Virus record (IMG/VR): IMGVR_UViG_3300021197_001243
Location: 19,757-83,756 of that record
Length of the DNA stretch: 64,000 bases
Origin: a virus
Reading direction: 5' to 3' (one strand)
Below the pieces are notes generated by a model that was given only the letters and a program-made list of their open reading frames with translations, did no database searches and had not been told where the DNA came from. Within the stretch, counting starts at the first letter, position 1. Each line of letters begins with the position of its first letter. This document shows, piece by piece, positions 5,492 to 61,561 of the stretch. The position numbers and the translations under genes were made by a program.

Positions 5492-8400
5492 TATTTTTTA
5501 CAAGTTAAAGGGTCTTTTTTACCTTTTTTAGGTTTACTCTGGGCTTTATTTTTATTTGCAATAGTGTAATTAGAATCTAAAAATATGGTATTTGTCATAT
5601 TTACAAGATTGGTGCTTCCTCTTACATCTATTGGTACAGAAACTCCTTCTTCGCCCTCTACAGGATTTCTAAAGTAAACTACTTCAGCTTTAGGTCTAGC
5701 TGCACCCTGTGCTATAGCTTGTTTAAAAGCTTTTTTAGACTTAGAAGTTAACTGATATGTAATAGGGTGAGTCTTTTTACTATACGTATTATTTTTAACT
5801 GCAATAGTCCTATCATTACGGTTATTCTCTAAAAAGTATTCAAAGTAATCTTCTATCCTACCGTTAAATACCATACCTGCATTTCCAGTTGCATACCTAT
5901 CTAAAGGATCTTCCATTAATCTCATAATTGAGTCTCCAGGTATTGTATTTAAGAATGAATTTCTTGCAGTTTCAATTCCGGTTTGAAGTAATGCTGTTTT
6001 AATAATATTTCTTGCTATATCAGGATATGTAGCTTCAACTTCTCTAAATCCATCATAGATACTATTCATTTCAAATGGAGTCATAGTTCTATTCAAAGGC
6101 TGAAGATAATCATTTGTCATGTCTTTACCCTCTCTAACAGGAGATATAACAGGTATGAGGTTCTGTATGAATGGATTATCTTTTAAAGGATGCTTTACTT
6201 TAGGATTTTGAATCGTTTCTATCTGCATTGCCATAGAGTCTTCTCCAAGCATAAGAGATTCTATATTATCTCCTAAATCTATTTCTTGATTTGAATCTTC
6301 TCTATATACAGGAATATTCTGCATTATAAATGATATAAATCCATTTTCATACTTATTCAAAATTTTTGCTCTTTCATCTACAGAAAGACCTCTAATATTA
6401 GGATTTGTATATATTTTTTGTATCCGTTTAAAGTCCACCATAAATGCAGCCTGCTGATCTTCTGTCAAAAATAGATCATTAAAAATAGTCTGCATGTCAT
6501 AGTTGTACATAGACAATGATCTCATAAATGTATCAGGTGTTCCTTTTTTAGCTATAAAATCTTCAAATCCTATTATATCTTGTTTAGAACCTAGTATATG
6601 TATTTGATCTGGCTCAAATGCTATAATTTCACCTAAGCCTTCTGTATCTATTATACCATCGTTACCTAAGTCTGAAAATCTTTTAGTATCACCAGGTTTA
6701 TTTATGGTCTCACTTAATCCAGGAGCATCGGTAATAGGATTTTTTAAATTTAAAACAACAGCCATTTTCACTTCCCCTACATGTGCATAGGCTGCCTTAT
6801 CGGAAGTGAAATAAAAACCATCACTTATTAATTTAGTTTTATCAAATTCTTCAAATTTTTCTTTTGTGTTATGATAAACAATATCTTTTACTTTACTCTC
6901 AGGGAATATAGTGTTTAGATAAGCATTGTACTGTTCTTCTGTACCTATCTCTGCTAGCTCAGGATTGGATTCAAATACTTCAGAGACACCTTCAGTAACC
7001 TCAGTTGCAGGTTGAGTAGTATTTATACTTGTTATTTTCTCAGCATTTTTAAACAGCCCTGTACTTAATGCACTTTTATACATATCTAAGATAACTCTAA
7101 GATGATTTCTGCTCTTAGGTATCTTAGTATCAAATGCTTGAGCCGTAACTATATTACCAAGAGTTTCACCTAGTTTGCTGTACATAAACATATCAGATAG
7201 TACTTGAAGCTGTACATACTTTTCTTCTTCAGTCATATCCTCTACATCTTTTGCCACCATAGGTTTAAGCATATCTGCACTTAAAAGGTACGTATCAGAT
7301 TCTGTAGGAGAAGTTTTAAAGTTTGTAGCATATAGCGTTCTAAGATCTTTAGATATTTCTTCATCATATATACTTTCTTCCATTACCTTACTTGTTCTAC
7401 TCCTACCTATTTCAAGCATTTGTAGGTAGTCTTTAACAATAGGCTGGTTAGCAAACATTGCTTGTGTACGTATATCTACTCCTACTCGAGTAAGGAACAT
7501 CCACATATTTGCATTGTCCGGAGTAATATTCAAAATGTGAAGTATAGGATTGTTCACAACATCTACAGAAGCGTTTGTAAACTGACTTATAGCATCAGAT
7601 ATACGCATAGTCCCTTCAACATTAGTCACTCTCCCTAAAGAATGTTCCATAGCTAATGGATCAAACCCTGTAAAGTTTATAGCTATCTCTTTAATAGCTC
7701 CTGTAGGAAGTTTAAGCTCATTATCAGTATCTAAAGTAAGTCCTGCTATTTGCCCTTTAATATGGTGCGTAGAACCAAGTGCTGCTATACCTACAAGTAC
7801 TTTACCTTTATTAAATGCTTCAGCTACCTCTATAAGATTAGGTATGCTAGTATCTGTATGGTAATCTGTAATAGTTGCTAAATCAGGTAGTCTTTTATCA
7901 CCTTTATAAATACCTTCTACAAGTTCATTAGTATTAGGATCTACACCTCCATTTAGCTCTAAAGCAATTGCCTCTAAGTCATTTGTATGCACAGGTTGTA
8001 GCCAGGTATCATATCTTTCCTCATTATTTATTTGCAATAACGTAATCATATCTTCCATTACAGCATTCTGCATAGCCCCCTTACTCTGTGAGTTGTACTT
8101 AGTGGCTTTTGGATTTTCAGCTTGCCATTCTTCAAAAGATTTAGAGAATACTTCTTGTTTAGCTATAATTTTTTTAATTCTAGCATATGATTTACGTATC
8201 TCTTTAGGATTAGAGTCAAAATACTGTGCTAGCTTATCCGCCTGTTCATTAGATATATCTTCTGCAGATTCTTTAAATAGCTCATCTGCTGTTTTTTCTC
8301 CAAAAATCTTACTTACAAAAGAGTCTGTAAGCATTTTTACAAGCTGATCTCTTTCTGCTACAGAATCCATTATGTCTTCCATCTCTTCAAGAGCCTTCAT

Positions 8401-11400
8401 ATTTCTATTCAGGATACGTTGCTCTGCATTATACCACTCTTCTAAAGAATCATAAAACTTTTCTTTTACAAGTTTACCTCCACGCATTCTATATGCTGGG
8501 AAATACAATACAAGTTTATCTATATCAAAGTCAGATCCTGACTTAGTAACCATTTCAGATGGAATTACCACTGTAGGACCTGCAGTTCTAGGTAAAAATC
8601 CTTTCACTTTAATAGCTTCAATAGAGTGAATACCGTCTGTAGGTATACGTATACCTATAAGTTCAAGTAGGTCAAGTTCTCCTACTTTAGTGTCTCCATC
8701 ATATATACCATCTTTTTTAATTATCATATCCTTACCCACCATCTCTTTAAAGTGATGTGGTAGATATACTTGCATATATTTATCTCCTTCAGTGTAAGCT
8801 TCAAGCTCATCAAGTCTCACTCCAGGTATACCATCTATTTTTGATGTTTCAAATCCTAGCGAAGACTGTTGTACATACATGTCCCCTTTAAATCTTTGAC
8901 GGATAACTCTCTTACCCGCAAGACTCCATAGTACTCCTTCAAGCCTTCCTTTATTAGACACTGCATCAAAGTACACAGGTTTTTTCTCTTCATTACGCTC
9001 TTCAAGATAATCTAAAGACGCAAGGAGTTGTTTAGGCATTTGACGTCTTAAACTCTCATTTTTAATAGCAGCTATAAACTTGCTGAAGTCATTGTTTATC
9101 ACTTCATAGTTCATAGTATTATCCTCATTCCTACCTTTTTCTTTTATACCAAACTCATCTAAAAGTTTAGTGTAAGCTTGCTCTGTAAGGCTGTTAAGAA
9201 CAGAATTATATCGTTCAATAGTAGGACTAAGAGCTTCAAATTCTGGACGAATAGCTCCGTTTTGAAATAAATCAGATAGTACTTGTACTCTTGCTTGTGT
9301 AGCAATCGGAGATGTACCTTTAAATTTAGAAGGCACTTCTAACTGTGTCCCCATAAATCTGTAGTCTATATTAACCACGTTAGAAGAATCTAAATTATTC
9401 TTTAACATGTCAGAGTTAAGTATAACTCCATCCTCCATAAGTTCTAACTGACTATCTTCTCCAGGTACACCAATCTTAAATGCAGATGGAAGTATAAGTC
9501 CCCCTAAAGTTTCTGAAGTAAGAAATTTGTACATATTTTCTATACCTGTAAATGTCTTATTCCCCATTTTTCCTAAACCAGGATATATAGGTGCAGCAGA
9601 CATTTTAAAGAAACCTGGTACTTGAGTATTTATATTGTCATTAGCGAGATATCCAAAATACTGGAATTTAAGAGGTGGGAATTTACCCATAACTTCATCA
9701 GTTATAGTATCTCCTCTATACATTACATTTTCATAGACTTTTTCTTGTGCAGGGCTCCAAGTATTTCCTCTTATAGCCATTTCTCTGTATGCAGGAAGAG
9801 TAAGTAAAAGTGTACCATCCGCTTTTTCAGCTGCTTTAGCATAAGCTGCAGCTACTTTTGGAGATAAAGAATCTATATACTCCTGTAAAAATGGAGTTAT
9901 ACGTGAAGGTTCTTTTACTACAACTAATTGTTCAAATCCATCTGCTACTTTTCCGTCAAATAGTGTAAATTCTGCATCTGTTTTATTGTTTTTTACTCTA
10001 GAGTTTTCAGAAGCGTTAAGCCATTCATTTAAGCCTTCATCTACATTAAATATGTCTTTTACACCTACAGCACCTTTTACTCTTTTAAATAAAGCTTTAT
10101 AAAATGCTGGATCTCCAAAAAACATTTTGAACATCTCATTTTTATAAATAGTCTGACGTACAACAACTGTTTCTACAAACTCTTGAAGTTTTTCTTTTGA
10201 TACATTATCAGGGAGTGTTTCTCCAAATCTAGCTCTATTTAGCCCATATAATTGATAGCTGTCATCTTCATTCTTAGAAACCACTTTAAGTTTATCCATA
10301 AACTCTATAAGTTCTTCTACATCTTCTTTTAAAACTTTTTCAATAGACTCAAAAAATGCATTGCTGTTAAGAGTTATAAATTCTTGTATATCATCTCTAG
10401 TGGCCTCTGCATTATTCATCATATTATTGAGGTGAGATGTCATGTCAGGATTAAGTTTTGACATAAGCTTTTTAAACATCCTCAACTTATTGATACGATC
10501 AGTGTAATCTTTTACATTAATTTGCTCTTCAGTCGCAGTGTTAGTAGCCACTATTTCATCTACTAAATATCCAAGTAGTGCATCTTTTGCTGACCGGATA
10601 TCCTTAAATTCCTTTATAGGGAATCTTATAGAGAAATCTGTAGCTATATCTGCCGCTTTAAGTACAGGCATTACACCTTCCATTATAGACTCTATATAGC
10701 TTGTAAGATTATCTGTAGGGCGCAGCTTAGAAGTTTTTACTCCTACTTGACCTGCACCCTCTATTGCAAGACCCTCACGTATCATTACATCCATTTTAAC
10801 ATTTGGATCGTCTCTAAGTGCTTTTAGAGTGAGGGAATTAAATGCATAAGGGTTTTTGTTAGGATTCTCTTTTGTAGGGAAATAATCTTTAAGCTCATCT
10901 ATAGGGGTATTTGCTATAGTGCTCATTTCATTGTTCATAGAAATGCTATAAACAAGTTTTCCTTCAGGATTTTGATGCTGGAACTCATACTCTATATTAG
11001 TAGTATCAAGTTCAAGCTTTGCAAGATGATTCATCCTTGTAACACTAAGAGATTCACTCCTGTCAAATAGTGCTGTAAGAGATGTAGTACCTGCTATTAT
11101 ATCTCCAAATACAAAGTCAATACCATTATCTATAGCATTTCTATATGTAGTGTCCGTACCAGGTAACATCATTTCATTTCTAGAATCTATCTGTAAGATT
11201 CCTTCTAACTTTTCTCTATTAGAGAATACTATTCCTAAATGTTCAAGGGCATCAAGTTTGTACCCATAATCTCTTGAGTTTTCTACAGCATTAAGTACTC
11301 CTTTTATAGTAAGTTTTCTATTTCCAAATTTGGATTTTACATCTTTATCAAATACAATATTGCCTCTCTCATCAAATTGCACATGTTTAGATGTCCGTGT

Positions 11401-14400
11401 CTTACCTCGTAGCGATGCATTCCATCTTGCACGTATACCTCTAAGATTTCTTTCTAGGTTAGGGTCTATGTTATAAATTTTACCTGTCTCTTGCAGTATA
11501 GTATACTGTGTGTCATACATTGTTTTTGCAAACTGATTTCTAAACGCTGTTTGCAATAATGCTTCTTGAAAAGACGTAGGCATTACATAAGGATCCTCCC
11601 CTAATCTCTCTAGTACATCTTTAGCCCAAGGATACTCTTCTTCAAGGTCTATTAATGTATCTAACTGGTCTTGAAAATTTAGTTTACCCTGCAGTTTTGT
11701 TTGTAGAGTTTTTAGTACAGATTTAAGCTCGTATGCACCTCTTAGTCCTGTTGAATTACGTTCTCCGGTTCTGTTAGGAATTGTTCCAAGTATAATTTTA
11801 ATAACTCCTTTTGCAGTGTCTGTAGGAGACATTTCTAATTGATCTGCAATATCTTGGAACATTTTACTGCTTACTTCATCTTCATCTCTAGTATCTTCTA
11901 ACTCTAAGTCAAGTCCTAGCTGTTTCATAAACTGCTGATGAATCATAGTAGCATCATATCTGTTTTCTGTTCCCAGATCCCAAATTCTACCTTGTATTTC
12001 TTTTGAACCTAAAGCACTACTATAAAGAGCTTGATTAGCCTTAAGTACTTGATTATATGCAGCAGTACCTTCTTTCAACTCACTAAGTCTCTCTGCGTAA
12101 TCGTCATACATTAATGCCCATGCATCTCTGTATGCTTGTGCTAATGCTGAACTTTTTACAGGTGTCATATCTAGAAAATCTGCAAATTCTAAATTTACCT
12201 CTCTACCTTCTTCTACTTCGTAAGTTACATTTTGTATAGCCTCTGCTAAATATGAGGTAAGAGTGGAGTTAAGATCTGCAGTAAATACAGCACTTTGACC
12301 ATTTAAAATCTGTGTAGCTGCCATCATAGGGCTACCTACATTCTTATTTTCAAGGTTTCTTTGTGCATTTTTAAACCCTCCTTCTTCAATCTTAGCAAAA
12401 AGCCCCTCTATACCTTTTATAGTGGGATCTATTTCAAAAGCTTTATCAAGTTTAAATACAGTTCTAAACGTATCTCTGATAAAATCAAATAGTTTTTGGA
12501 AAATAGTTCTTTGCTCTGGAGTTACAGTGTCTTGTCCTATTACATATTTACCTTTTGACAATACATATCTCCTGAACTCTTCTGCTAACCATTCTTCTGC
12601 CTCTTTATCTGTAAACTCTGAAAGGAGTTTTGATACAGGCTTATAAGAACGATCTTGTTCTCCTTTAGCTAGCTCTTGGTATGGTACTGCTTTACCTTTT
12701 GTACGTCGTACAATATTGTAAAGTTTTTGTCTATCTCTTGGAGACAACATGTGCAGAGATACATTATGAAATCCTTCATGGTATAGTGCTCCTCCTGGTG
12801 CAAGATCCGATACAAGTATTTTACCAAAATCTTTAAGTTGAGCATATCCTTCTCCACTCATACCAGAAATCATTCCTAATACAGGAATAACCTCTGTAAT
12901 AAGCATACCCTGTAATCTTGCAAGTTCTTCCCCAAATGTTTCCTGTATATACTTATCAGATGGTAATGTGTAAGAGCTTGCTAAGAATGGTAAATCTTCT
13001 TGATCAGTAGATGGACGCTTTGTAGTAGTTGGTGTTGTTGTAGTATCTGGCTCAGTATCATCTTCTTTGTATTTCTCTTCAAAAACTTGCGATTGCTCTT
13101 TAGAAAGATCCCCATCCATATATCTATCTTGGATTCTTTCTTTTAAAGCTTGCGGTTCATCTGGATCTTCAAGTATCTCTATAAGCTCTTCTCCAGACAT
13201 CCGGTTTATAGCCATATCTACATACTTTAAATCAGCTGGGGGCTCGTATGTAGGCTTTTCTTCAGGCTTTTTATTAGGATCAAGATCAGTTAGTTCAGTG
13301 ATAGGTGCTCCAGTAGGAGAAAGTTCAGGAGACTCATTAGGATTTGTAGAAGGACGCGTTACTCCTGCTTTTTCTAAAGTTTCATTTACAGTATCTCTAA
13401 TAACTCTACCTGTTCTTGTAGCTCTTTGTACAGCTTTACCTCTAAAACTCCTTACATATTTAAGAGATTTTCTTTGCTTTTTACTATTGTTGAACATTGC
13501 ATACCCACCATGCCATCTTGGAGCATCGAGTATTTCAGAATCAGAATTTGAAGATATTGGAGTTGCTCTTGTTAATAATGGAGATTGTCCTTCATCTCTA
13601 TCTTTTAAAAGATATTCATTATAATTCTTCCATGTTTTACTGTTATCTTCATCTAGAGTAAGGTCATCGTTTAGAATTACCTGTAGGTATCCTTCCTTTT
13701 TACCATTTGTAATACTACTCTTACTTATATTGTGGTATTTAGTAGTTAAAAACTTTTTGAAAGAATTATATACTTCATCTTCTACACCGGCTTCAAAGTT
13801 TTCTAACCCAATTTCTTGACTTTGATCTCCGAATATAAATGTTCCTTTACGGTGAATTAATTGAAATCTAGGGTCATCTTTTTTAGACTTTTTACCCCGC
13901 ATATAGATTATATCATCTAAAGCTTTTTTAAGAGATATCTTTTCACCTTCAAATTCAAATTCAAATTCTTTTGCAGCTTCATATGCTTTTTCCCAACTTT
14001 TAGTCCCTTCTTGAGCATCATAACTTTCCTTACGTACAGTTATAAGTTTTTGAAGTAATCGGAGTACATTTTCTACTTCATTAGCTTCAAACTCTCTCCC
14101 TATCATAGGTATAGCTAGTTGACGTTTCTTGTCAAACGCCCATACAAGACCTGATCTTGTACGCACAGGCATAGGTATATCTTTAAGAGTTATAGTTTCA
14201 TCTATAGTTTTAGAGGTACCTATATATAACCCTACGTCAGAGTATTGATTTTTACTATGTAGTTTCCCAGAATTTTGTGTGGCCTCATCTTCAAGGACTA
14301 TTTTCCCATTAGATTTACCTGTAATATTATATAAGTATACTTCGTCAGATTCTAAAGTTTCTTTTCTCCAGGTTTCATGAGCTTCACTAATGTCATCTTT

Positions 14401-17400
14401 TTCAGACTGTTTTAAATCTTTATCACTTCTAAACCTTTCGTCTCCGTTAGCCCTCTTTAATTTAGAGGTCATAGCAGATGTAAATACAGGGTTATTTTCG
14501 TCGTCTGTTACAAATTTATGGACATTCTCATATCTTTTTTTCTTAGCGTTCCAGGCTTGGATTTTAACTGCTACAAGTTTTATATCATTCTCGTCAAAGA
14601 ACATATCTTTTGTAAGCCCCAACTTTTGCAGGTCTTCAGGGATATTATCTCTAGTTACTGCTGCAAGTGAATAGTTATAATAAGTTTTTCCTTTGCTTAG
14701 AGTAGGACCTACATCAGTAGTATGCAGCCAATTAAACCATCTTAACTGAGATTCTGCTATAAGGAACTTTTCTTGCTCTTCGTCTGTTCTATCATCTTCA
14801 TCTATAACTACAAGATTTCTATAAGTTTGAAGTGCACCGTCGTACACATCTTTATTTTCATCAGTTACATGGCGACCAGTAGTTCTATTAAATCCTGGAT
14901 ACGATATATCCGACTTAGCTAATGGTGCAGTATCAAGCTCAAGATTATAGGCATCTTCTACAGGGAATGTATAGTTTGCAGAAGGCCTGTTAGGATCCGC
15001 ATCTGTACCTTTTTTGATTTTAGTATTCTGAATTAAGGTAAATGCAACTAAGTTTGTAGATGCATCCTGAAATTGTTTTAAAGTCTCTACAAAGGGTGCT
15101 ATTCCATCTAAGGAATTTATATCTACAGGTAGTAATTCTTTTAATCTATTTATACTCTGCTCTGTAAGAATAATTTCTGATGCAAGAAACTCTACATTAT
15201 CTTGTTCTTCAAGAGTAAGTTTATTTTTCTTTTTAAAATTAGCTCTATGCTGATTTAAAAGATCTTCAAGTATACTTTTGTAGTCATTTAATTGTACAAG
15301 TTCATCTGTAATTTCTTGTATACTCTTTTCAATAATGCCTACTTGAGATTGCTTTTCTTCTTTTAGCTTAACCATATCTCTTAAAAATCTTAGAGTAAGA
15401 TCGTTTGAAATGGATTTTTTAGAATCTATTTCTTTTAAGAGTCCTTCTGTTTTACCGTACATTTCAAGACTGTACGTATTAAGGTTAGGTTGATTTACTT
15501 CAAACTCATCTATAACAGATAAGATATTGTATAGATTATCTCTATCTACATTAAGATCTTTTAAAAGGCTTTCTCCTATACGGATAGTTTCCTCTATGTC
15601 TGCTATCTTTTTATTTGCATCTTTTACTGTTAGGAATCTGCCATTTTTTCCTCTGATACGCTTACCAGCTTCAAGTTTCTCTACATCTTGTACAAGATCT
15701 GCAAGAAGATCCTTTATTTCTTGTTTAAGATCAAGTATTCTTTTTTCAAGATTTACAACTTCACGTTCAGATGTTTTACGTGCTTCTTGAAGTTTATCTT
15801 TAAACTCTTGTACTTTTCTAGCGTCCTCTTCATCTTTTCTTTTACGAGCTTTCTTTTCTTCCTCTGTAACCTCTGTATCAAGAGCATTTATTTTATCGAT
15901 AATATTCTGCGTTACTTGTGGATTGTAATAAGGATCCATAAGCTTTTTATACATCTCCCCGGCAGACTGTCTCCTTGCTCTTAATTTTCTAAGATCTGCA
16001 AGTAATCCATATACCTCTTTTTCATTCTTCGCAAAACCTTCAGGATCAGACTTTTTCCAAGGCTCTATAATTTTTTCATACTCCTCTTGTGATAGTATAT
16101 TTTCATCACCTACCTCTTTAATTATAGCGTTTAGCTCTACTTTAGCATCGTATAAAGTACGAAGAGTTGCGGCTTGTGCTGGAGATCTATCTGTTATTTT
16201 TTCTAGTGCGTCAATAGTATTTAAAACAGTTACAAGTTGACCTCTAACGTCTGCCTCCCCTGTAAAAGCCGCTATATCTATTTGACGAATATTACCTTCT
16301 GCATCTTGGTACTCTATTACAGGCATTGTTTCAATATCAGTAAGATCTTCAGTTGTAGTCTTACCTTCTTTGTCACTTATCCTGTATCCTGGAGCTTTTG
16401 CTAGTGTACCTCCTATAAGTGGAGCTAATTTTTCTATTATACTTCCCTCTCGCTCTTCTGTGTTATTCATTGTAGATAAAGCATGAATAAGCATTTTTCT
16501 ATTAAAAGCTTTTGTACCAGGCCTATCGTATCCTACATATTTTTCTTGCTCTGTATATCTAAGATTAGAATCTACTTTATTTACATTTTCATAAACTTGT
16601 TTAGCTCTTTCTTTTACAGCATTTACTACATGAGATTTTCTTTTAGTAACTTCTTCACTTGTAAGATTTTCAGCTGTGTATCCTCCCCACTCTATAAACT
16701 CTTCTTCAGACATATTGAGAATCTCATCGGTTTGATTTTCAATATCTTGATACTGACCTGTATGTATTTTAGCCATTACATAGTCAAAGAAGTTATCATA
16801 CTCTAGATCTTTAGCTAAAGCCATGTCTCCAGCCTCCATAGCTTGATCCATAAGTTTACTTCTCTTGGCTACATTCATAAAAAATGCAGCATTAGTAGAA
16901 AGAGTTTTTAGAAGTCCTGGGTTCTCCTCTATAGCTTTGTCTAAATAGTCAAGAGCCTCTCTTCTAACCTTTGTATTTTTATAAGCTTGTATTGCAGTAG
17001 TATTTACACCTGGAAGTCCTAAACTTCCCATTATAGCTCCAAGAACTACCTCTGTAAGACCTTCATCTGTAAAATAAGACTCTGCTCCTGCCTCTTTAAA
17101 TGAGCTTACACTAGCACCTACAAGCTCTCTAAGACTGTTATCATCTCTTATCCCAGAAAGAAGTGCATAATCTGCAGCAGCTCTTTGCATTACACCCTGT
17201 CCACCTTCTTCTATTACACCTTCATAAAAACCTCTTCCTGCTACATATCCCACTCCTTTAGCAACATCTGTTGCTGTTTTACCTATTTTTCCCTCTACAA
17301 GTTTTCTTGCTCTAGTACCTACTCTTGCAATTCCATTATCTAAAGATTGTACTCCAGGTATATTACGAATAAGGTTGTGTTTACCTAGACCATAAAGTTT

Positions 17401-18465
17401 AGGGACCATAAGTATGTTACTCATACCTACTAAAGCTACGTTACCTGCAAAGACACCATTAGATAAAGAAGTGGCTTCGTCTTCAATATCTTGCCTTTCT
17501 TTTACACTAAGAGCTTCAAATTTTTGCTCTTTAGTCATATTATAAGGGTCAAGACCTTTTTCTTGTAAAGCAGCAATTATAAGATTATCTTTTATTCTAT
17601 CATATGCATGTCTAGATTCTACACCGGCTTCATACATAGCACCCGTACCAAGCTGTCTTACAAGTTTACCAGTATCTAAAAGTTGCTGTCTTGAAACAAA
17701 CTGTGATGCTGCTTTTGCTACATCTGTGGTTTTCCTCCCTAATGTTGTAGCTTTAAATAACCTTGTACCTCTTGCTAAAAGAGATGCAGTTCCTGCTGCT
17801 TGTACTCCTGCAGCACCTCCAAGTGTAGCAGCTGTTAAAGCTGATAATCCTAATTCTGTAATTACAGCTCCAGCTAAGAAACTCATACCGTTTAAGAATT
17901 TGTCAGACCAAAAGTTTGCTGTACCCATTTGATCCCACAAACCTTTTTCTCTTTCAAATTGAGTATAATGGTTAGGTAGGGTTTCATCCATAGCAGAGTT
18001 TAGATCATCTAAACCTCTTGCAAATTCATTATTGTAAAATGAGCTCCATTTTTCATCTCTAACACCTGAATATAGACCATATCCCAATCCAATAATACTA
18101 CCTATAACATTAACTCCTGTTTTACCTGCAAATTTTACAGAGCCATTAGCGTATTTATCAATATCAGTTTGAGTGGCACCTCTATAATCTGAAAGATCAT
18201 CTAACTGCCCAGGTAAAGTAATGTTGTAATCTTGCTTATACTTTGCAAAATCTTCTGGTACATACTGCCCTACATTTTGTACTGGAGCAGGTGTAAACAT
18301 ACCTATAGCATCTGCCTCTTGTACAAGCATAGAGTTAAATGCTGTATCTTCAGGTAAATTAGAAGGATCATCTTCGTCTCCTAACTCTGCCGGTGCAGTT
18401 TCAAGAGGAGATGCTGCAAGTGCTGTGTCTTCAGGGAGGTTTAATAGCTCGTCTTCTTCTTCCAT
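5491..18465 (-). CDS. Giant virion-encapsidated RNA polymerase (crAss-like vRNAP, 4324 aa) with zincin and ART-like accessory domains
   Basis: Catalytic loop LIGIRIPT...VVIPSEMVTKSGSDFDIDKL, with DFDID at 8518-8532, is typical of crAss-like vRNAPs. HEGFH...EEWLAEEF zincin motif at 12766-12780. N-terminus is Gly/Ala-rich and hydrophobic, followed by a long coiled coil. Confidence 0.92.
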   Translation of the reverse strand: MEEEDELLNLPEDTALAASPLETAPAELGDEDDPSNLPEDTAFNSMLVQEADAIGMFTPAPVQNVGQYVPEDFAKYKQDYNITLPGQLDDLSDYRGATQTDIDKYANGSVKFAGKTGVNVIGSIIGLGYGLYSGVRDEKWSSFYNNEFARGLDDLNSAMDETLPNHYTQFEREKGLWDQMGTANFWSDKFLNGMSFLAGAVITELGLSALTAATLGGAAGVQAAGTASLLARGTRLFKATTLGRKTTDVAKAASQFVSRQQLLDTGKLVRQLGTGAMYEAGVESRHAYDRIKDNLIIAALQEKGLDPYNMTKEQKFEALSVKERQDIEDEATSLSNGVFAGNVALVGMSNILMVPKLYGLGKHNLIRNIPGVQSLDNGIARVGTRARKLVEGKIGKTATDVAKGVGYVAGRGFYEGVIEEGGQGVMQRAAADYALLSGIRDDNSLRELVGASVSSFKEAGAESYFTDEGLTEVVLGAIMGSLGLPGVNTTAIQAYKNTKVRREALDYLDKAIEENPGLLKTLSTNAAFFMNVAKRSKLMDQAMEAGDMALAKDLEYDNFFDYVMAKIHTGQYQDIENQTDEILNMSEEEFIEWGGYTAENLTSEEVTKRKSHVVNAVKERAKQVYENVNKVDSNLRYTEQEKYVGYDRPGTKAFNRKMLIHALSTMNNTEEREGSIIEKLAPLIGGTLAKAPGYRISDKEGKTTTEDLTDIETMPVIEYQDAEGNIRQIDIAAFTGEADVRGQLVTVLNTIDALEKITDRSPAQAATLRTLYDAKVELNAIIKEVGDENILSQEEYEKIIEPWKKSDPEGFAKNEKEVYGLLADLRKLRARRQSAGEMYKKLMDPYYNPQVTQNIIDKINALDTEVTEEEKKARKRKDEEDARKVQEFKDKLQEARKTSEREVVNLEKRILDLKQEIKDLLADLVQDVEKLEAGKRIRGKNGRFLTVKDANKKIADIEETIRIGESLLKDLNVDRDNLYNILSVIDEFEVNQPNLNTYSLEMYGKTEGLLKEIDSKKSISNDLTLRFLRDMVKLKEEKQSQVGIIEKSIQEITDELVQLNDYKSILEDLLNQHRANFKKKNKLTLEEQDNVEFLASEIILTEQSINRLKELLPVDINSLDGIAPFVETLKQFQDASTNLVAFTLIQNTKIKKGTDADPNRPSANYTFPVEDAYNLELDTAPLAKSDISYPGFNRTTGRHVTDENKDVYDGALQTYRNLVVIDEDDRTDEEQEKFLIAESQLRWFNWLHTTDVGPTLSKGKTYYNYSLAAVTRDNIPEDLQKLGLTKDMFFDENDIKLVAVKIQAWNAKKKRYENVHKFVTDDENNPVFTSAMTSKLKRANGDERFRSDKDLKQSEKDDISEAHETWRKETLESDEVYLYNITGKSNGKIVLEDEATQNSGKLHSKNQYSDVGLYIGTSKTIDETITLKDIPMPVRTRSGLVWAFDKKRQLAIPMIGREFEANEVENVLRLLQKLITVRKESYDAQEGTKSWEKAYEAAKEFEFEFEGEKISLKKALDDIIYMRGKKSKKDDPRFQLIHRKGTFIFGDQSQEIGLENFEAGVEDEVYNSFKKFLTTKYHNISKSSITNGKKEGYLQVILNDDLTLDEDNSKTWKNYNEYLLKDRDEGQSPLLTRATPISSNSDSEILDAPRWHGGYAMFNNSKKQRKSLKYVRSFRGKAVQRATRTGRVIRDTVNETLEKAGVTRPSTNPNESPELSPTGAPITELTDLDPNKKPEEKPTYEPPADLKYVDMAINRMSGEELIEILEDPDEPQALKERIQDRYMDGDLSKEQSQVFEEKYKEDDTEPDTTTTPTTTKRPSTDQEDLPFLASSYTLPSDKYIQETFGEELARLQGMLITEVIPVLGMISGMSGEGYAQLKDFGKILVSDLAPGGALYHEGFHNVSLHMLSPRDRQKLYNIVRRTKGKAVPYQELAKGEQDRSYKPVSKLLSEFTDKEAEEWLAEEFRRYVLSKGKYVIGQDTVTPEQRTIFQKLFDFIRDTFRTVFKLDKAFEIDPTIKGIEGLFAKIEEGGFKNAQRNLENKNVGSPMMAATQILNGQSAVFTADLNSTLTSYLAEAIQNVTYEVEEGREVNLEFADFLDMTPVKSSALAQAYRDAWALMYDDYAERLSELKEGTAAYNQVLKANQALYSSALGSKEIQGRIWDLGTENRYDATMIHQQFMKQLGLDLELEDTRDEDEVSSKMFQDIADQLEMSPTDTAKGVIKIILGTIPNRTGERNSTGLRGAYELKSVLKTLQTKLQGKLNFQDQLDTLIDLEEEYPWAKDVLERLGEDPYVMPTSFQEALLQTAFRNQFAKTMYDTQYTILQETGKIYNIDPNLERNLRGIRARWNASLRGKTRTSKHVQFDERGNIVFDKDVKSKFGNRKLTIKGVLNAVENSRDYGYKLDALEHLGIVFSNREKLEGILQIDSRNEMMLPGTDTTYRNAIDNGIDFVFGDIIAGTTSLTALFDRSESLSVTRMNHLAKLELDTTNIEYEFQHQNPEGKLVYSISMNNEMSTIANTPIDELKDYFPTKENPNKNPYAFNSLTLKALRDDPNVKMDVMIREGLAIEGAGQVGVKTSKLRPTDNLTSYIESIMEGVMPVLKAADIATDFSIRFPIKEFKDIRSAKDALLGYLVDEIVATNTATEEQINVKDYTDRINKLRMFKKLMSKLNPDMTSHLNNMMNNAEATRDDIQEFITLNSNAFFESIEKVLKEDVEELIEFMDKLKVVSKNEDDSYQLYGLNRARFGETLPDNVSKEKLQEFVETVVVRQTIYKNEMFKMFFGDPAFYKALFKRVKGAVGVKDIFNVDEGLNEWLNASENSRVKNNKTDAEFTLFDGKVADGFEQLVVVKEPSRITPFLQEYIDSLSPKVAAAYAKAAEKADGTLLLTLPAYREMAIRGNTWSPAQEKVYENVMYRGDTITDEVMGKFPPLKFQYFGYLANDNINTQVPGFFKMSAAPIYPGLGKMGNKTFTGIENMYKFLTSETLGGLILPSAFKIGVPGEDSQLELMEDGVILNSDMLKNNLDSSNVVNIDYRFMGTQLEVPSKFKGTSPIATQARVQVLSDLFQNGAIRPEFEALSPTIERYNSVLNSLTEQAYTKLLDEFGIKEKGRNEDNTMNYEVINNDFSKFIAAIKNESLRRQMPKQLLASLDYLEERNEEKKPVYFDAVSNKGRLEGVLWSLAGKRVIRQRFKGDMYVQQSSLGFETSKIDGIPGVRLDELEAYTEGDKYMQVYLPHHFKEMVGKDMIIKKDGIYDGDTKVGELDLLELIGIRIPTDGIHSIEAIKVKGFLPRTAGPTVVIPSEMVTKSGSDFDIDKLVLYFPAYRMRGGKLVKEKFYDSLEEWYNAEQRILNRNMKALEEMEDIMDSVAERDQLVKMLTDSFVSKIFGEKTADELFKESAEDISNEQADKLAQYFDSNPKEIRKSYARIKKIIAKQEVFSKSFEEWQAENPKATKYNSQSKGAMQNAVMEDMITLLQINNEERYDTWLQPVHTNDLEAIALELNGGVDPNTNELVEGIYKGDKRLPDLATITDYHTDTSIPNLIEVAEAFNKGKVLVGIAALGSTHHIKGQIAGLTLDTDNELKLPTGAIKEIAINFTGFDPLAMEHSLGRVTNVEGTMRISDAISQFTNASVDVVNNPILHILNITPDNANMWMFLTRVGVDIRTQAMFANQPIVKDYLQMLEIGRSRTSKVMEESIYDEEISKDLRTLYATNFKTSPTESDTYLLSADMLKPMVAKDVEDMTEEEKYVQLQVLSDMFMYSKLGETLGNIVTAQAFDTKIPKSRNHLRVILDMYKSALSTGLFKNAEKITSINTTQPATEVTEGVSEVFESNPELAEIGTEEQYNAYLNTIFPESKVKDIVYHNTKEKFEEFDKTKLISDGFYFTSDKAAYAHVGEVKMAVVLNLKNPITDAPGLSETINKPGDTKRFSDLGNDGIIDTEGLGEIIAFEPDQIHILGSKQDIIGFEDFIAKKGTPDTFMRSLSMYNYDMQTIFNDLFLTEDQQAAFMVDFKRIQKIYTNPNIRGLSVDERAKILNKYENGFISFIMQNIPVYREDSNQEIDLGDNIESLMLGEDSMAMQIETIQNPKVKHPLKDNPFIQNLIPVISPVREGKDMTNDYLQPLNRTMTPFEMNSIYDGFREVEATYPDIARNIIKTALLQTGIETARNSFLNTIPGDSIMRLMEDPLDRYATGNAGMVFNGRIEDYFEYFLENNRNDRTIAVKNNTYSKKTHPITYQLTSKSKKAFKQAIAQGAARPKAEVVYFRNPVEGEEGVSVPIDVRGSTNLVNMTNTIFLDSNYTIANKNKAQSKPKKGKKDPLTCKK

Positions 18466-37023: not shown

Positions 37024-37072
37024 TAAAAAAATAAAAACCGAGAAAGAGGTCAATTCCTCCCTCCCGGTTTTA
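37024..37072 (-). terminator. Intrinsic terminator after the capsid-accessory genes
   Basis: Minus strand AAAACCGGGAGGGAGG-AATTGA-CCTCTTTCTCGGTTTT followed by TATTTTTTT. Confidence 0.7.
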
Positions 37073-40580: not shown

Positions 40581-40615
40581 AAATAAAGGGGAGAAGAAAT
40601 ATACTCTCCTCCCCC
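40581..40615 (-). terminator. Intrinsic terminator after the major capsid gene
   Basis: Minus strand GGGGAGGAG-AGTATATTT-CTTCTCCCC followed by TTTATTT. Confidence 0.75.
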
Positions 40616-43220: not shown

Positions 43221-43291
43221 CAAAATTAAATGGAATGTTTTATTACACCCAATAATATTCTTTTTTATAAGTGTAGTTATAATATAGCATT
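43221..43291 (-). promoter_or_regulatory. Late promoter: TAATTTTG -7 element plus upstream AATGCTATATTATAA box
   Basis: TAnnTTTG at 43221-43228, 5 nt before the ATG. The upstream box at 43277-43291 is shared with the portal promoter. Confidence 0.65.
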
Positions 43292-51568: not shown

Positions 51569-51640
51569 CAAAGTTACTTTATACTTATGATGACTCTTAG
51601 TACCTACAGATTTTTAAAATACCTTTTATAATAAGGCATT
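51569..51640 (-). promoter_or_regulatory. Late promoter: TAACTTTG -7 element plus upstream AATGCCTTATTATAA box
   Basis: TAnnTTTG at 51569-51576, 5 nt before the portal ATG; upstream box at 51626-51640. Confidence 0.65.
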
Positions 51641-58419: not shown

Positions 58420-59574
58420 TTAAGCGATTCCACCATCTGTAATAGCACCAAACTTTGTAACCAAAGATGCTCTTGCTGCTGCTGCTGCACCACCGCCTGT
58501 GTATTTAGACCCTCCGAAGTTTACAGTTCCTGAATAACCAGGAGATCCTTGAGCATCCCAAGCAATAAGAGTGGCATCATAATTAGCAGTAGACATTCCT
58601 GTAATTCCATTCATAAACGTATTCATATTTGTCATAGATGCTGTAATATCCCACCCTGCAAGACTGCCTCTAAAAGCATCGCACTGGTTTAGCATATATT
58701 GAATATCTGTAAAATTACTTGTGTTCCAATTGCTAATATCACCGTTAAAACTGTCGGCACTATTAAATAATCTGTTTGTATTGCTAAGATTACTTGTGTT
58801 CCAAGAATCCACTCCTATACCTGTGAAACCTTCAGCATTTTGAAAAGCTGCGTATACACTAACACCTGACTTAAATGTCCATCCAGCTACACTTGAATTA
58901 AACCCATCAGCGTCTTTAAATGCCTCATACATACTGTCTAGCCCAGAAACATCCCAAGTTGAAAGTGGTTGGTTAAACGCAACCGCAGACATAAACATTC
59001 CCCTAATAGTAGTGGTGTTAGATGTTACCCATCCTGCTAAACTACCGTTAAATCGAAGTGAGTTTCTAAACACTTCTTGCATATTAGTAACCGTACTTGT
59101 ATCCCAATCACTAAAATCTGGGGTAGTTATTAAATCGCAATTGTAAAACATTCGATAGAATGTAGTTGCTGATATTTTTGGATAATCTGTTGCTGTTATT
59201 GTTAGGTTAGCACAGTCTTTAAAGGCGTTACTTCCCGAAGTAATATCTAATATTCCCCATTGAGAAATCTCTGTTATTTTAAGATAATCTCCTGCACCTG
59301 CAAAATTAAATCCCTTTAATACAGTACCTGTAATAGTAATGGTATAAATTCCACCTGATGCGTATGTGTGCGCTCGATTAGCATAAGACAAATCAGATGT
59401 TGAACTATCTCCCCAATCAATCGTGCCGTCTTGTGCAGGGTCGTTATCAATAGGGAGAGAAAAACCATCTCCTGCTGATTTAGATGTGTCAACAACTATA
59501 GAAAATGGAAGTACTGCCGCGGCACCTCCACCTTTACGAAATGGTACTCCTATGCCGTTTCCTAAGATTTGCAT
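58420..59574 (-). CDS. DUF285/BspA-like repeat protein with a PKD-like N-terminal domain
   Basis: IDWGDSST...HTYASGGIYTITITG, then ~25-aa repeats WDTSTVTNMQEVF, FNQPLSTWDVSGLDSMYEAF and FNGDISNWNTSNFTDIQYML. Confidence 0.8.
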   Translation of the reverse strand: MQILGNGIGVPFRKGGGAAAVLPFSIVVDTSKSAGDGFSLPIDNDPAQDGTIDWGDSSTSDLSYANRAHTYASGGIYTITITGTVLKGFNFAGAGDYLKITEISQWGILDITSGSNAFKDCANLTITATDYPKISATTFYRMFYNCDLITTPDFSDWDTSTVTNMQEVFRNSLRFNGSLAGWVTSNTTTIRGMFMSAVAFNQPLSTWDVSGLDSMYEAFKDADGFNSSVAGWTFKSGVSVYAAFQNAEGFTGIGVDSWNTSNLSNTNRLFNSADSFNGDISNWNTSNFTDIQYMLNQCDAFRGSLAGWDITASMTNMNTFMNGITGMSTANYDATLIAWDAQGSPGYSGTVNFGGSKYTGGGAAAAARASLVTKFGAITDGGIA

Positions 59575-59578
59575 TTTC

Positions 59579-59893
59579 CTACAGCATATAGATTACACAA
59601 CTACCACTACTCATTGTAATGGCTGTAATCTGTGATCCTTTAGGTACTGGAAAGTATGCCCCCGCTTTAACAGTTACACCATTCAATCCGTAGTTAGTTA
59701 GTTGAACCACTCCATCTACAGTGAATACTGTAAACACTGTATCCTCTTGTACTACCACTGAATATCCTGTCAATGCTGTGTGAGCTCCTGTACCTGTAAG
59801 ATTCTTAAACCCACCTGTAGCTATAATATTATTAAGGTCTGTAGAGTTTTGCGCAGATATCTTTGCAAAGCTTTCTCCTGTTGTTAATCCCAT
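59579..59893 (-). CDS. Hypothetical beta-rich (probably virion) protein
   Basis: 104 aa ending ITAITMSSGSCVIY; part of the late operon. Confidence 0.6.
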   Translation of the reverse strand: MGLTTGESFAKISAQNSTDLNNIIATGGFKNLTGTGAHTALTGYSVVVQEDTVFTVFTVDGVVQLTNYGLNGVTVKAGAYFPVPKGSQITAITMSSGSCVIYML

Positions 59894-59912
59894 GATTTTA
59901 AAATTTTAAAAA

Positions 59913-60275
59913 TTATGCTTTCTTCCAATATGCATACTCTAGTACGCAGCTAGCTGTATCAGCTCTTGCTTCTACACCTGCACTATCATTCACTGGAAAG
60001 AAACAGAACTCTCCTGGACTAAGCCTAGCATATTGTACACTAGCTGTAGTTTGAAGAATTACAAAGTTAGTTGCATCTGTGTTCTTTGCATAAAAGTAAT
60101 ACACTCCACTTACTGCCTCATCTACAATCTCTTGATTGTCTGCAGTAGTAATAGTCAACCTTGACATACCTACAATAGGAGCTCCAATTGTTAAAGCGTC
60201 TGTTACAGTTAAGGCTAAAGACTCTGATGTTGCATCGGTACTCGTCAGTGCCAATGTTGCTGTTAATGTTGCCAT
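59913..60275 (-). CDS. Small beta-rich virion protein (paralog of 31217-31576)
   Basis: First protein-coding gene of the minus-strand block; shares NTDATNFV, GEF and RADT motifs. Confidence 0.7.
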   Translation of the reverse strand: MATLTATLALTSTDATSESLALTVTDALTIGAPIVGMSRLTITTADNQEIVDEAVSGVYYFYAKNTDATNFVILQTTASVQYARLSPGEFCFFPVNDSAGVEARADTASCVLEYAYWKKA

Positions 60276-60329
60276 TTTATAAGTTATTTATCGCGTTAAA
60301 TATTCTTTTTTTCTTTCCCTCTAAGATAT

Positions 60330-60350
60330 AAAAAATCCCTTGAGGGAATT
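60330..60350 (-). terminator. Intrinsic terminator closing the putative ncRNA
   Basis: Minus strand AATTCCC-TCAA-GGGATT followed by a T-run. Confidence 0.55.
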
Positions 60351-60616
60351 TATTTCAGTTCCTTCTACTCTTTCAATCAGGATTTAGACTCCGCCAGTGC
60401 TTCCTTCAGATACCTAGGGTTGACCTTCTTGGTGTTAATTCACCTACACTTACCTATGTGTCGCCTTACGGCAGTCAACCCAAACTGAGTCCTATGTTCC
60501 ATCTCTTCTGTATCCTATCGGAGAAAACTCCACCTCTATTTAAGGCTACAATCCGACTTCTGACCCCTTACTGCACCATTACGGTTCCTCGTGGGTGATC
60601 ACTTTCGTGGGATACG
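60330..60616 (-). ncRNA. Putative ~285-nt structured non-coding RNA of unrecognised family
   Basis: No ORF in the track and GC-richer than its flanks. Helices GTATCC/GGATAC, GGGTTGAC/GTCAACCC and GACTC/GAGTC; hairpins CAC-GAAA-GTG, GCC-GTAA-GGC, GGAG-TTTT-CTCC and GGTG-AATTAA-CACC. Bounded by a promoter and a terminator. Confidence 0.65.
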
Positions 60617-60620
60617 GTTA

Positions 60621-60628
60621 CAAAATTA
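60621..60628 (-). promoter_or_regulatory. Bacteroidota-type -7 promoter element (TAATTTTG) for the putative ncRNA / late region
   Basis: ACTAATTTTGTAA, the same form as the promoters at 43221, 51569 and 55533. Confidence 0.65.
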
Positions 60629-60760
60629 GTATAAAAAATTCTTAATCCACCAAAAAAATTTTTGAAGAGGGAAAATTTTTGAATGCGGGTACCTACTTAG
60701 AGAACACCCCGTATCATAATTGAGTTTTTAAAATCAATTATTTAATCAAAATTATCAAAA

Positions 60761-61021
60761 ATGGACGAATTAACATTCTATTTTATCAAATTTATCGCTG
60801 AATATCGTATGATAGTCATCGAAACTGAGATTGACGAGGAACCTGAAGAGCTTCCTATCAAACTCACGCGCAAAAAGTTCGCTAAGGCTCAAGCGCTAAA
60901 CCTTAAACTTGACGACATTGTTACCAATGCCGCCAAAACTAAGTTTCTACATGAGAGTATAGTGAAGAATTTCACTAAATCTCAAGGAGCTTCTAACTGG
61001 GGTGAGAAGCGTAAGAAATAA
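60761..61021 (+). CDS. Hypothetical early protein
   Basis: 86-aa ORF with an A-rich leader, followed by a terminator. Confidence 0.7.
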   Translation: MDELTFYFIKFIAEYRMIVIETEIDEEPEELPIKLTRKKFAKAQALNLKLDDIVTNAAKTKFLHESIVKNFTKSQGASNWGEKRKK

Positions 61022-61026
61022 AATTC

Positions 61027-61051
61027 GGGGACTTAGGTCCCCTTATTTTTT
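61027..61051 (+). terminator. Intrinsic terminator
   Basis: GGGGAC-TTAG-GTCCCC followed by TTATTTTTT. Confidence 0.8.
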
Positions 61052-61226
61052 CCTATTGTGTGTGCTTATAACAACTACTGTAACGGTAGTTATAACAGCA
61101 TTACACAAATGTGTGTGGATGTGGTAACTACATCGCATTCACCACTTTTTATCCCTTTTCCTTATGTGTTATCAATAACATATATTGTAACAGTATAACA
61201 TAAACCGACTATAAAAACATAAAGTC

Positions 61227-61472
61227 ATGACAGTATCATCACACAAATTAGGAGCAATCGTAATACTTTTACTTAAATCAGATGACACAGGCACTAAGCT
61301 TGAGGGTTATACAATCCTTGAGATGTTATGTGCTGCTTACCTTGAAGGTGAAGACACTGAAGCAGGTGAGTCATTTAATAGAGTTTGGGGAGTTCTTTCA
61401 ACACCTAAGAAGGAGTATTTCGTGAAGAATGTAACGGCTTTTAAAAGCTGCTTTAAAGCGCAGAACGCATAA
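61227..61472 (+). CDS. Hypothetical early protein
   Basis: 81-aa ORF with an A-rich leader. Confidence 0.6.
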   Translation: MTVSSHKLGAIVILLLKSDDTGTKLEGYTILEMLCAAYLEGEDTEAGESFNRVWGVLSTPKKEYFVKNVTAFKSCFKAQNA

Positions 61473-61561
61473 CAATACTTTAGTCGGTGGCCTTGCTTAA
61501 TAGCGGGTCACTGACTTAACTGATAAGGTTCAAAAAGTGATTAAATCACCTTTGAATCTTT

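Follow-up and report, generated by a model that had tools for sequence, protein, structure and literature searches.

The stretch analysed here, called the window in the following, comprises 64,000 nucleotides of viral DNA that form the final 64 kb of an 83,756-bp IMG/VR virus record, and it carries on its minus strand a structured RNA of about 292 nt (60324-60615, from the 5' strand of helix P1 to the 3' strand of helix P7). Conservation and covariation indicate that this segment, minus strand 60615-60324, encodes a functional and strongly constrained two-domain RNA, and from the comparison with its relatives it apparently belongs to a large and so far uncatalogued family of RNAs of Bacteroidota phages and mobile elements. 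An initial annotation, made from the sequence alone, had described it as a stand-alone RNA at the head of a long leftward gene block, and of this description the position at the head of the block is confirmed. As to its function, the RNA may be a cis-acting leader at the operon head that modifies transcription in an antitermination-like manner, a reading that we place first with a probability clearly below one half.

Structure and conservation of the two domains

Domain 1 (60510-60615) is a four-way junction, conserved throughout the family, that was delimited with a covariance model, R1, and by covariation. Read on the minus strand, to which all positions of the RNA refer, it is closed by P1 (60615-60610 with 60515-60510, GTATCC/GGATAC) and contains the P2 hairpin (60609-60600, CAC-GAAA-GTG), the junction strand J2/3 (AUCA, 60599-60596), helix P3 (60596-60593 with 60566-60563) with the P4 hairpin inside it (60585-60575, ACC-GTAAT-GGT), the junction strand J3/5 (CAGAA, 60562-60558), and helix P5 (60557-60552 with 60522-60517), which in turn encloses the P6 hairpin (60545-60533, CCT/AGG). 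R1 was built from 17 sequences with a structure that was checked by hand, and comprises 114 positions, with 26 pairs distributed over helices P1 to P6. In the window it finds a single match, which extends over the full model (60505-60616, minus strand; 70.3 bits, E 5e-15). The hallmark of the R1 family is a P1-closed four-way junction with the elements AUCACC, GGUCAGAAGUYGGAU and UUUCUCCRAU, and the window RNA has all of these.

The pairs of domain 1 covary strongly among homologues. In 58 distinct sequences from viral and genome loci, 96.2% of the cells are paired, 19 of the 26 pairs have been changed on both sides, and there are 350 compensatory cells; the covariation score of 0.539 stands against 0.132 for shuffled alignments, with none of 500 shuffles reaching it, and at most 0.089 for slid ones. 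An independent set of 67 distinct metagenome sequences, from among the matches listed, has 94.4% paired cells, 393 compensatory cells and a score of 0.487 against 0.130 shuffled and at most 0.090 slid, and the 18 of 26 pairs that are changed on both sides in this set are a count that is reached also by 320 of 500 shuffles. The alignments of domain 1 were fitted to the structure of the model, and pair counts therefore lean towards that structure; in the unfitted raw sequences, the covariation of P1 is plain, as the closing helix can be GTATCC/GGATAC, GAGAC/GTCTC, GAAGC/GCTTC, GGCAA/TTGCC or GACGC/GCGTC. P5 has the form GUCGGA/UCCGAU, and its third pair has turned from C-G to U-A in 20 of the 58 and in 18 of the 67 distinct sequences. 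One G-U pair never varies in either set. Such invariant G-U pairs identify the minus strand as the RNA strand, and the functional RNA that had been suggested for this strand is well supported by the covariation. The hairpins and helices GTATCC/GGATAC, CAC-GAAA-GTG, ACC-GTAAT-GGT and CCT/AGG of the initial annotation are kept by compensatory changes in relatives; its hairpin GGAG-TTTT-CTCC has to be given up, as the relatives keep P5 (GUCGGA/UCCGAU) instead.

The junction strands between the helices are near-invariant (AUCA, UCAGAAG, GAGUUUUCU and AUAG), the conserved junction words being AUCACC, UCAGAAG and UUUUCUCC, and in total the junction module of about 110 nt holds some 35 near-invariant bases. 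Folding energies are not informative, with z = -0.71 for the minus strand, where 40 of 200 shuffles fold equally well, and z = -1.85 for the plus strand. As folding stability is no better than chance, the case for the RNA rests on covariation together with conservation.

Domain 2 follows after the linker AGAAGAGAU (60509-60501), which connects domain 1 with the 5' strand of P7. Its core (60387-60491), based on compensatory changes among six close relatives and on an alignment of long forms, consists of Pa (60491-60487 with 60391-60387, GACTC/GAGTC), Pb (60481-60474 with 60424-60417, GGGTTGAC/GTCAACCC), a subfamily hairpin (60472-60463), Pc (60461-60446, ACAC/GTGT), Pd (60444-60431, GGTG/CACC), and the Pe region with a conserved AGCACUG (60416-60394). 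The elements that the initial annotation had seen in this domain, namely GACTC/GAGTC, GGGTTGAC/GTCAACCC, GCC-GTAA-GGC, ACAC/GTGT and GGTG/CACC, all recur with compensatory changes in relatives. When 50 long-form sequences were aligned with MAFFT and folded with RNAalifold, 92.6% of the cells were paired and 23 of 53 pairs were changed on both sides. The long-range helix P7, by which domain 2 is closed, pairs GG..AUAUAG just 3' of domain 1 with YURUAUCU, and the strands in the window are GGAACAUAG (60492-60500) and UUAUAUCU (60324-60331); of its 8 pairs, 5 are changed on both sides, with 86.5% of the cells paired in the long-form alignment. P8 (60336-60382), as predicted by RNAalifold, pairs UCCU (60382-60379) with GGGA (60339-60336), and within it are the conserved word GAUUGAAAG (60378-60368) as well as a local hairpin (60362-60345). 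The alignment from which P7 and P8 were derived also served for counting, and the slid controls are therefore lenient in their case.

At the 3' end, a terminator-like hairpin with a T-run and a second promoter for the next gene (TATCTTAG, 60321-60328) had been proposed, and neither withstands the comparison. The UCCC-UCAA-GGGA stem at this place has 4 pairs and fails the terminator consensus, the U-run is missing there in most relatives, and the GGGA arm is predicted to be the 3' strand of P8; a simple consensus scan for canonical intrinsic terminators, defined as a G+C-rich hairpin of at least 5 pairs with a U-run, found none on the minus strand between 60000 and 61000. TATCTTAG has one mismatch to the TAnnTTTG promoter box and no TTTG 17-23 nt upstream, and it overlaps with the 3' strand of P7, which is conserved as YURUAUC even in those relatives where it is not promoter-like. 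Most subfamilies have the whole 3' motif, AGGG(G)-N5-7-YRUAUC, in the corresponding position, and a U-run does not usually accompany it. The idea that this motif could be a repeated late promoter was rejected, as the window has one exact match and near-matches at chance level (20 with up to 2 mismatches, 15.8 expected).

A family of phages and mobile elements

The first gene behind the RNA (59913-60275, minus strand, with its ATG 48 nt past the end of P7) encodes a protein of 120 aa without any family match. Homologues of this protein are encoded at 34 viral loci, and only at two of them, L003 and L027, does the RNA adjoin the gene; at L027 the RNA is 89% identical to the window RNA, and the neighbouring protein is 48% identical. 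With the conserved 16-mer GGTCAGAAGTYGGATT, 87 viral stretches were retrieved, most of which are true homologues according to a profile of six close copies. A two-anchor pattern matched 19 places in prokaryotic genomes, 17 of which were accepted as members, mostly in metagenome-assembled genomes (MAGs) of Bacteroidota, and at least 119 places in metagenome contigs, which are largely marine. Two candidates, L136 from a Methanobacteriaceae MAG and L139 from Oceanobacillus, appeared by eye to be chance inverted repeats without AUCACC and P3, had no R1 match, and were dropped from all counts. R1 itself matches at 65 places in the 95 viral and genome loci and in 80 of 80 metagenome loci among the matches listed, which amounts to at least 145 matches with at least 110 distinct sequences in viral, genome and metagenome contigs. 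The pattern scans under-count the family, because the covariance model alone detected L288 (G157:C1:24876-27971) and L286/L287, members with altered hallmark bases (GGGAUUAGACAUCGGAUU; GUCAGACGUUGGAUU).

The RNA had been regarded as a novelty of a phage, and this has to be widened, as integrated elements carry the family too, and the 1.8-Mb MAG of a rumen bacterium of the Bacteroidota (G003) has about 20 copies. The G003 copies (loci L125-L134, L137, L141, L142, L147 and L149-L166) have a short form that consists of domain 1 and two hairpins without the P7 motif, and each of them has an TAACTTTG promoter about 100 nt upstream, followed by a variable leader. Two P5/P6 variants in this genome differ by a compensatory change (GGAUU...UCUCC versus GGGUU...UCCCC), and the common flanks of the copies suggest a miniature mobile element. 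In the order to which this bacterium belongs, 2 of 151 genomes searched have a match under stricter filters, one of them being G003 itself.

No described family could be assigned to these RNAs. A blastn search of 50,697 GenBank phage records with the window RNA and two other subfamily members gave no match, a permissive search with the core in the same records gave only 2 short chance matches, and an exact 24-mer from domain 2 had no match in viral contigs. Rfam 15, with which also pRNA, 6S RNA, SRP RNA, RNase P RNA, tmRNA, riboswitches, self-cleaving ribozymes, GOLLD, ROOL and HEARO were covered, has no match in the whole window at the gathering threshold, only chance-level hits at E-values up to 10 (E 0.56-6.5, each lying either beyond the core or at its edge), and none at the RNA sites of the 17 genome loci and in 8 diverse members (the latter at E up to 1). 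The earlier statement that the segment is neither tRNA, tmRNA, RNase P RNA nor an intron agrees with this, and also with ARAGORN, which detected no tRNA or tmRNA gene in the window. Group I or group II introns, guide RNAs derived from insertion sequences, retron RNAs and tRNA mimics were considered and rejected, as there is no interruption of an open reading frame (ORF), no recurring adjacent reverse transcriptase, transposase or nuclease, and no Rfam match. A description of the family was not found in the literature searched, and it may nevertheless be among the 10,006 structured RNA candidates of an IMG/VR catalogue (PMC10690425), as far as can be judged from the accessible part of that publication.

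Position at operon heads, transcription and possible function

Promoters of the Bacteroidota housekeeping sigma factor have a TTTG at -33 and a TAnnTTTG at -7, about 19-21 nt apart, and transcripts start a few nucleotides downstream. A two-part pattern scan of the window identified such an arrangement, TTTG-N22-TAATTTTG, directly 5' of the structured RNA (60654-60621, minus strand), and the predicted promoter agrees with the sigma factor's pattern except that its spacer of 22 nt is 1 nt longer than that range. The -33-like element (60644-60654, with the TTTG itself at 60654-60651) has the same arrangement in close relatives, and the -7 box TAATTTTG at 60621-60628, which had already been annotated as a promoter, is of the TAnnTTTG type and has its TTTG 22 nt upstream. 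TTTG-N17-23-TAnnTTTG has 4 matches in the window, and the one ahead of the RNA (60654-60621) is the sole intergenic one; TAnnTTTG by itself is uninformative, as it occurs 62 times when 73 matches are expected. Further upstream, 5' of the -33 element, a stretch at 60655-60700 (minus strand) is conserved in close relatives (L046, L084, L102, L027) and contains A5T5-like repeated words (CAAAAATTTT), possibly an UP element or the site of a regulator.

Between 60276 and 60769 the minus strand has no ORF that reaches 30 aa, in line with the initial annotation, and the GC content at 60400-60599 is 0.465, compared with about 0.36 in the surroundings. Small ORFs head rightward from 60761, divergent from the RNA, and the leftward block of about 60 kb behind it encodes a holin, an amidase, terminase, portal and major head proteins as well as several giant proteins. 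One of the latter, a 4324-aa ORF at 5491-18465 (minus strand), has as its sole match a weak sub-threshold one to ART-PolyVal, the ADP-ribosyltransferase of polyvalent proteins (residues 3862-3929), and three more ORFs of the window, with 1639-1870 aa, have no Pfam match.

The position at the head of a gene block is a regular feature of the family. An exact TAnnTTTG is found just upstream in 50 of 106 distinct copies, in 45 of them ending 4-8 nt before the first base of P1, and many of the remaining copies have near-matches to it. In 71 of the 75 copies outside G003, the start of an ORF on the same strand follows no more than 700 nt downstream. In most of the phage loci inspected by eye the upstream neighbour is divergent, and in the phage loci inspected the RNA is the first element of a co-directional gene block, whatever the first gene may be. 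The 68 distinct first downstream proteins are mutually unrelated: 10-11 are Cpn10/GroES-like, 3-4 are small terminase subunits, 3 are NikA-like, and methylases, helicases, HNH nucleases and others are single cases. Among five larger relatives of this phage, three carry the RNA elsewhere in the genome, at the head of a leftward block with a GroES-like first gene, and in these a second canonical promoter comes after the RNA. Copies in chromosomal islands adjoin restriction-modification, helicase and mobilisation genes. In one phage subgroup an acidic, Cys-rich ORF of 61 aa that ends with CENCGS lies between promoter and RNA (L055, 8808-8993, minus strand; the same ORF end is present in L057, L058, L075, L042, L079 and L087), and in some copies its stop codon touches P1.

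The regular operon-head position together with the varied genes behind it argues against a metabolite riboswitch and for a link to the transcription of the operon itself. A riboswitch-like sensor, with a domain 1 junction that would bind a small molecule or ion reporting the state of the host, and with P7/P8 competing against the local UCCC/GGGA hairpin and its U-run to set read-through or translation of the first gene, could explain the many invariant unpaired nucleotides of the junction, the two-domain layout with a 3' strand that ends 20-60 nt before the first ORF, and the ability of the GGGA in the window to pair either locally, with U6 following, or with UCCU. We nevertheless regard it as improbable: the downstream genes share no common pathway and the 68 first proteins fall into many unrelated families without any consistent gene association, U-run and alternative hairpin are missing in most subfamilies, the local hairpin does not conform to the terminator consensus, and the stand-alone G003 copies have no expression platform. 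Still far less probable is a role in packaging, like that of the phi29 RNA, or another role in virion assembly; this had been one of three functions proposed in the initial annotation, and we consider it next to excluded. Structural and packaging genes are near to the RNA in the window and small terminase genes follow it in 3-4 relatives, but other copies reside in chromosomal islands, in mobilisable elements and, about 20-fold, in one bacterial genome, which are chromosomal places outside of phages, in many phages the operon headed by the RNA is non-structural and opens with a GroES-like gene, and no resemblance to a phi29-type pRNA was found, the pRNA family of Rfam giving no match at E-values up to 10.

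The RNA is expressed, and it is contiguous with downstream genes in metatranscriptome contigs. Among the 24 listed sequencing runs that hold a part of 59500-61500, 20 are marine RNA libraries; four runs were examined in detail, and runs with a share below 0.2 were not used as evidence of habitat. Contigs of the four runs cover 59522-60601, and one contig, which spans exactly this range, bridges the RNA and the downstream ORFs. This contig and the lack of a canonical terminator are at variance with the stand-alone unit that had been annotated. The RNA part (60293-60601) has no differences from the window, and records that span 59522 to 60313-60601 have 28-31 differences, all listed ones at or below 60194. 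No contig of the four runs lies over 60603-61500, which fits a transcript start, although gaps of this kind are no proof.

In three of the four runs the contigs stop at 60601/60602, with the contig of run X1 continuing into Illumina adapter letters. The contigs start 19-20 nt downstream of the -7 box; the stop falls in the 3' arm of P2 and is displaced inward by 13-14 nt from the predicted transcript start. Libraries of this type commonly lack 10-20 nt at the true 5' ends of transcripts, and the stop is attributed to this, although it could also be due to processing or to a stop of reverse transcription. The sharp 5' end in three of four runs speaks for a new self-cleaving or self-processing ribozyme, which would have its active site in the conserved junction, and the distribution in phages and mobile elements with many copies in one genome, as well as the compact core with its clustered invariant junction bases, resembles that of small ribozymes. 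The end lies, however, in the variable P2 hairpin and not at a conserved junction base, an end loss of such a size is common in libraries of this type, and none of the ribozyme families of Rfam matches, so that we give a ribozyme very little credit.

A leader that acts in cis and confers resistance to termination is favoured further because there is no canonical terminator behind the RNA, because a contig bridges it with the downstream genes, and because the block contains two strong internal terminator-like hairpins. One of these (37034-37071, minus strand) has a 16-bp stem and a T-run, and the next gene (37012) starts 22 nt further on with no promoter in between; the other (40587-40615, minus strand) has a 12-bp stem and follows directly after the gene of the major head protein. 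Both hairpins serve only as context for the antitermination reading. In the proposed mechanism, the RNA would act in cis as the 5' leader of the block of about 60 kb, its conserved junction would form a module for binding to the transcribing polymerase of the host or to an elongation or termination factor, and transcription begun at the promoter of the RNA would then read through internal terminators by a processive, antitermination-like mechanism, comparable to that of HK022 put or of conAn2. Among the three functions that had been suggested at the outset (packaging or assembly RNA, antitermination leader and protein decoy), the antitermination leader is our best guess as the one that fits the positional evidence best, and a protein decoy may apply instead.

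Several observations weigh against such a leader. Many phage relatives have a second canonical promoter between RNA and operon, and because of this promoter the operon there does not depend on transcription through the RNA. The G003 copies, each with its own promoter, mostly follow a co-oriented gene (15 of 17) and precede a convergent one (13 of 16); the core in this genome cannot be an operon leader, which favours an autonomous module that acts in trans. Within the block of the window, TAnnTTTG boxes end 5-6 nt before internal start codons at 43221-43228 and 51569-51576 (minus strand), where they precede a 367-aa ORF and the portal gene, and these boxes could be internal promoters for near-leaderless mRNAs or just AT-rich start contexts. 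On the side of the structure, P7 in the window keeps one C-A mismatch, and P8 shows little covariation, as 93.5% of its cells are paired but the changes are mostly one-sided and thus give weak support. Contig depths (in run X4 10.2 for the RNA contig versus 4-6.3 downstream, in run X2 5.6 versus 6.4) cannot rank abundance and do not show whether the RNA accumulates separately. Finally, known antitermination RNAs are smaller and simpler: put has two stem-loops in about 70 nt, whereas the window RNA, at about 290 nt, combines a four-way junction with a further domain of several helices, and a binding to the polymerase is only proposed in its case.

The G003 copies and the second promoters of many phages fit better with the alternative of an autonomous non-coding RNA (ncRNA) that acts in trans. 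Its four-way junction would serve as a scaffold to which a conserved Bacteroidota protein binds, and by this the protein would be titrated or hijacked; among the candidate targets are an RNA chaperone, a ribonuclease, RNA polymerase and a defence protein. In this case the operon transcript would release the RNA from its 5' end, or the RNA would be weakly terminated. This alternative, which is possible though not probable, is rated almost as high as the cis-acting leader. With it, one model covers the phages, the integrated elements and the approximately 20 promoter-bearing G003 copies between convergent genes, and the second promoter after the RNA in many phages as well as a conservation of the RNA far above that of its flanks are readily understood; that the RNA in run X4 is on a contig of its own (60362-60602), apart from the downstream genes, is only a hint. 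What such an RNA would not need is the regular placement at the head of gene blocks and the same orientation in 71 of 75 copies, and the absence of a canonical terminator in the window and the contig that bridges RNA and ORFs speak against it as well.

Relation to known RNA elements and significance

For a cis-acting leader, two known systems offer themselves for comparison. conAn2, the RNA component of the bipartite conAn system of Gram-positive conjugative plasmids, has been reported to mediate antitermination in cis, and like the window RNA it is a large RNA element at the start of a very long operon of a mobile element; according to the accessible part of the report, there is another promoter near the element, as in the RNA family described here, and conAn1 precedes conAn2 in the way the small ORF precedes the RNA in one phage subgroup (PMC8191782). 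The likeness is one of position, the hosts are Firmicutes in one case and Bacteroidota in the other, and no ConAn1-like protein was identified in the window. The put RNA of HK022, as described in the accessible part of its source, acts alone on the elongating host RNA polymerase and suppresses pausing and termination, and both put and the window RNA are phage-encoded and located just downstream of a host-type promoter (PMC9378689).

Other relatives by character are the large orphan structured RNAs GOLLD and ROOL, which often occur in phages and which share with the window RNA an ornate structure, strong covariation and the association with phages or mobile elements (10.1101/2024.12.08.627333, accessible part). 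The window RNA is much smaller than these, does not match their Rfam models, has a fixed operon-head position, and shows nothing that would suggest multimeric cages. The catalogue of Fremin, Bhatt and Kyrpides (2023), in which 879 of the 10,006 candidates are located at most 25 bp upstream of genes with known domains, draws on the same source, IMG/VR, and the family is not described in the accessible portion of its main text (PMC10690425).

Structured leaders and ncRNAs of mobile elements are already a known kind, yet there is a fair chance that the mechanism is new for Bacteroidota, and no description of an RNA-based control of elongation in this phylum was found in the literature. It is conceivable, although we would not count on it, that the family represents a so far undescribed, RNA-only class of regulators specific to Bacteroidota mobile elements, in which a module of about 110 nt, the first part to be transcribed from a strong host promoter, would load onto the host transcription machinery or another conserved host factor and would license entire operons of phages or mobile elements. 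In that case it would be the first RNA-only device for antitermination or takeover in the phylum; one rumen bacterium has amplified the same module to about 20 copies. Bacteroidota phages are abundant in oceans and guts, and how their very long operons are transcribed by the host polymerase is largely unexplained. If the RNA acts on RNA polymerase, it would open a new way to the control of genes in Bacteroidota and their phages; should a host protein be titrated instead, a new route of host takeover or counter-defence would come into view. In either case the 110-nt junction is a defined and compact target for structural work and reporter assays.

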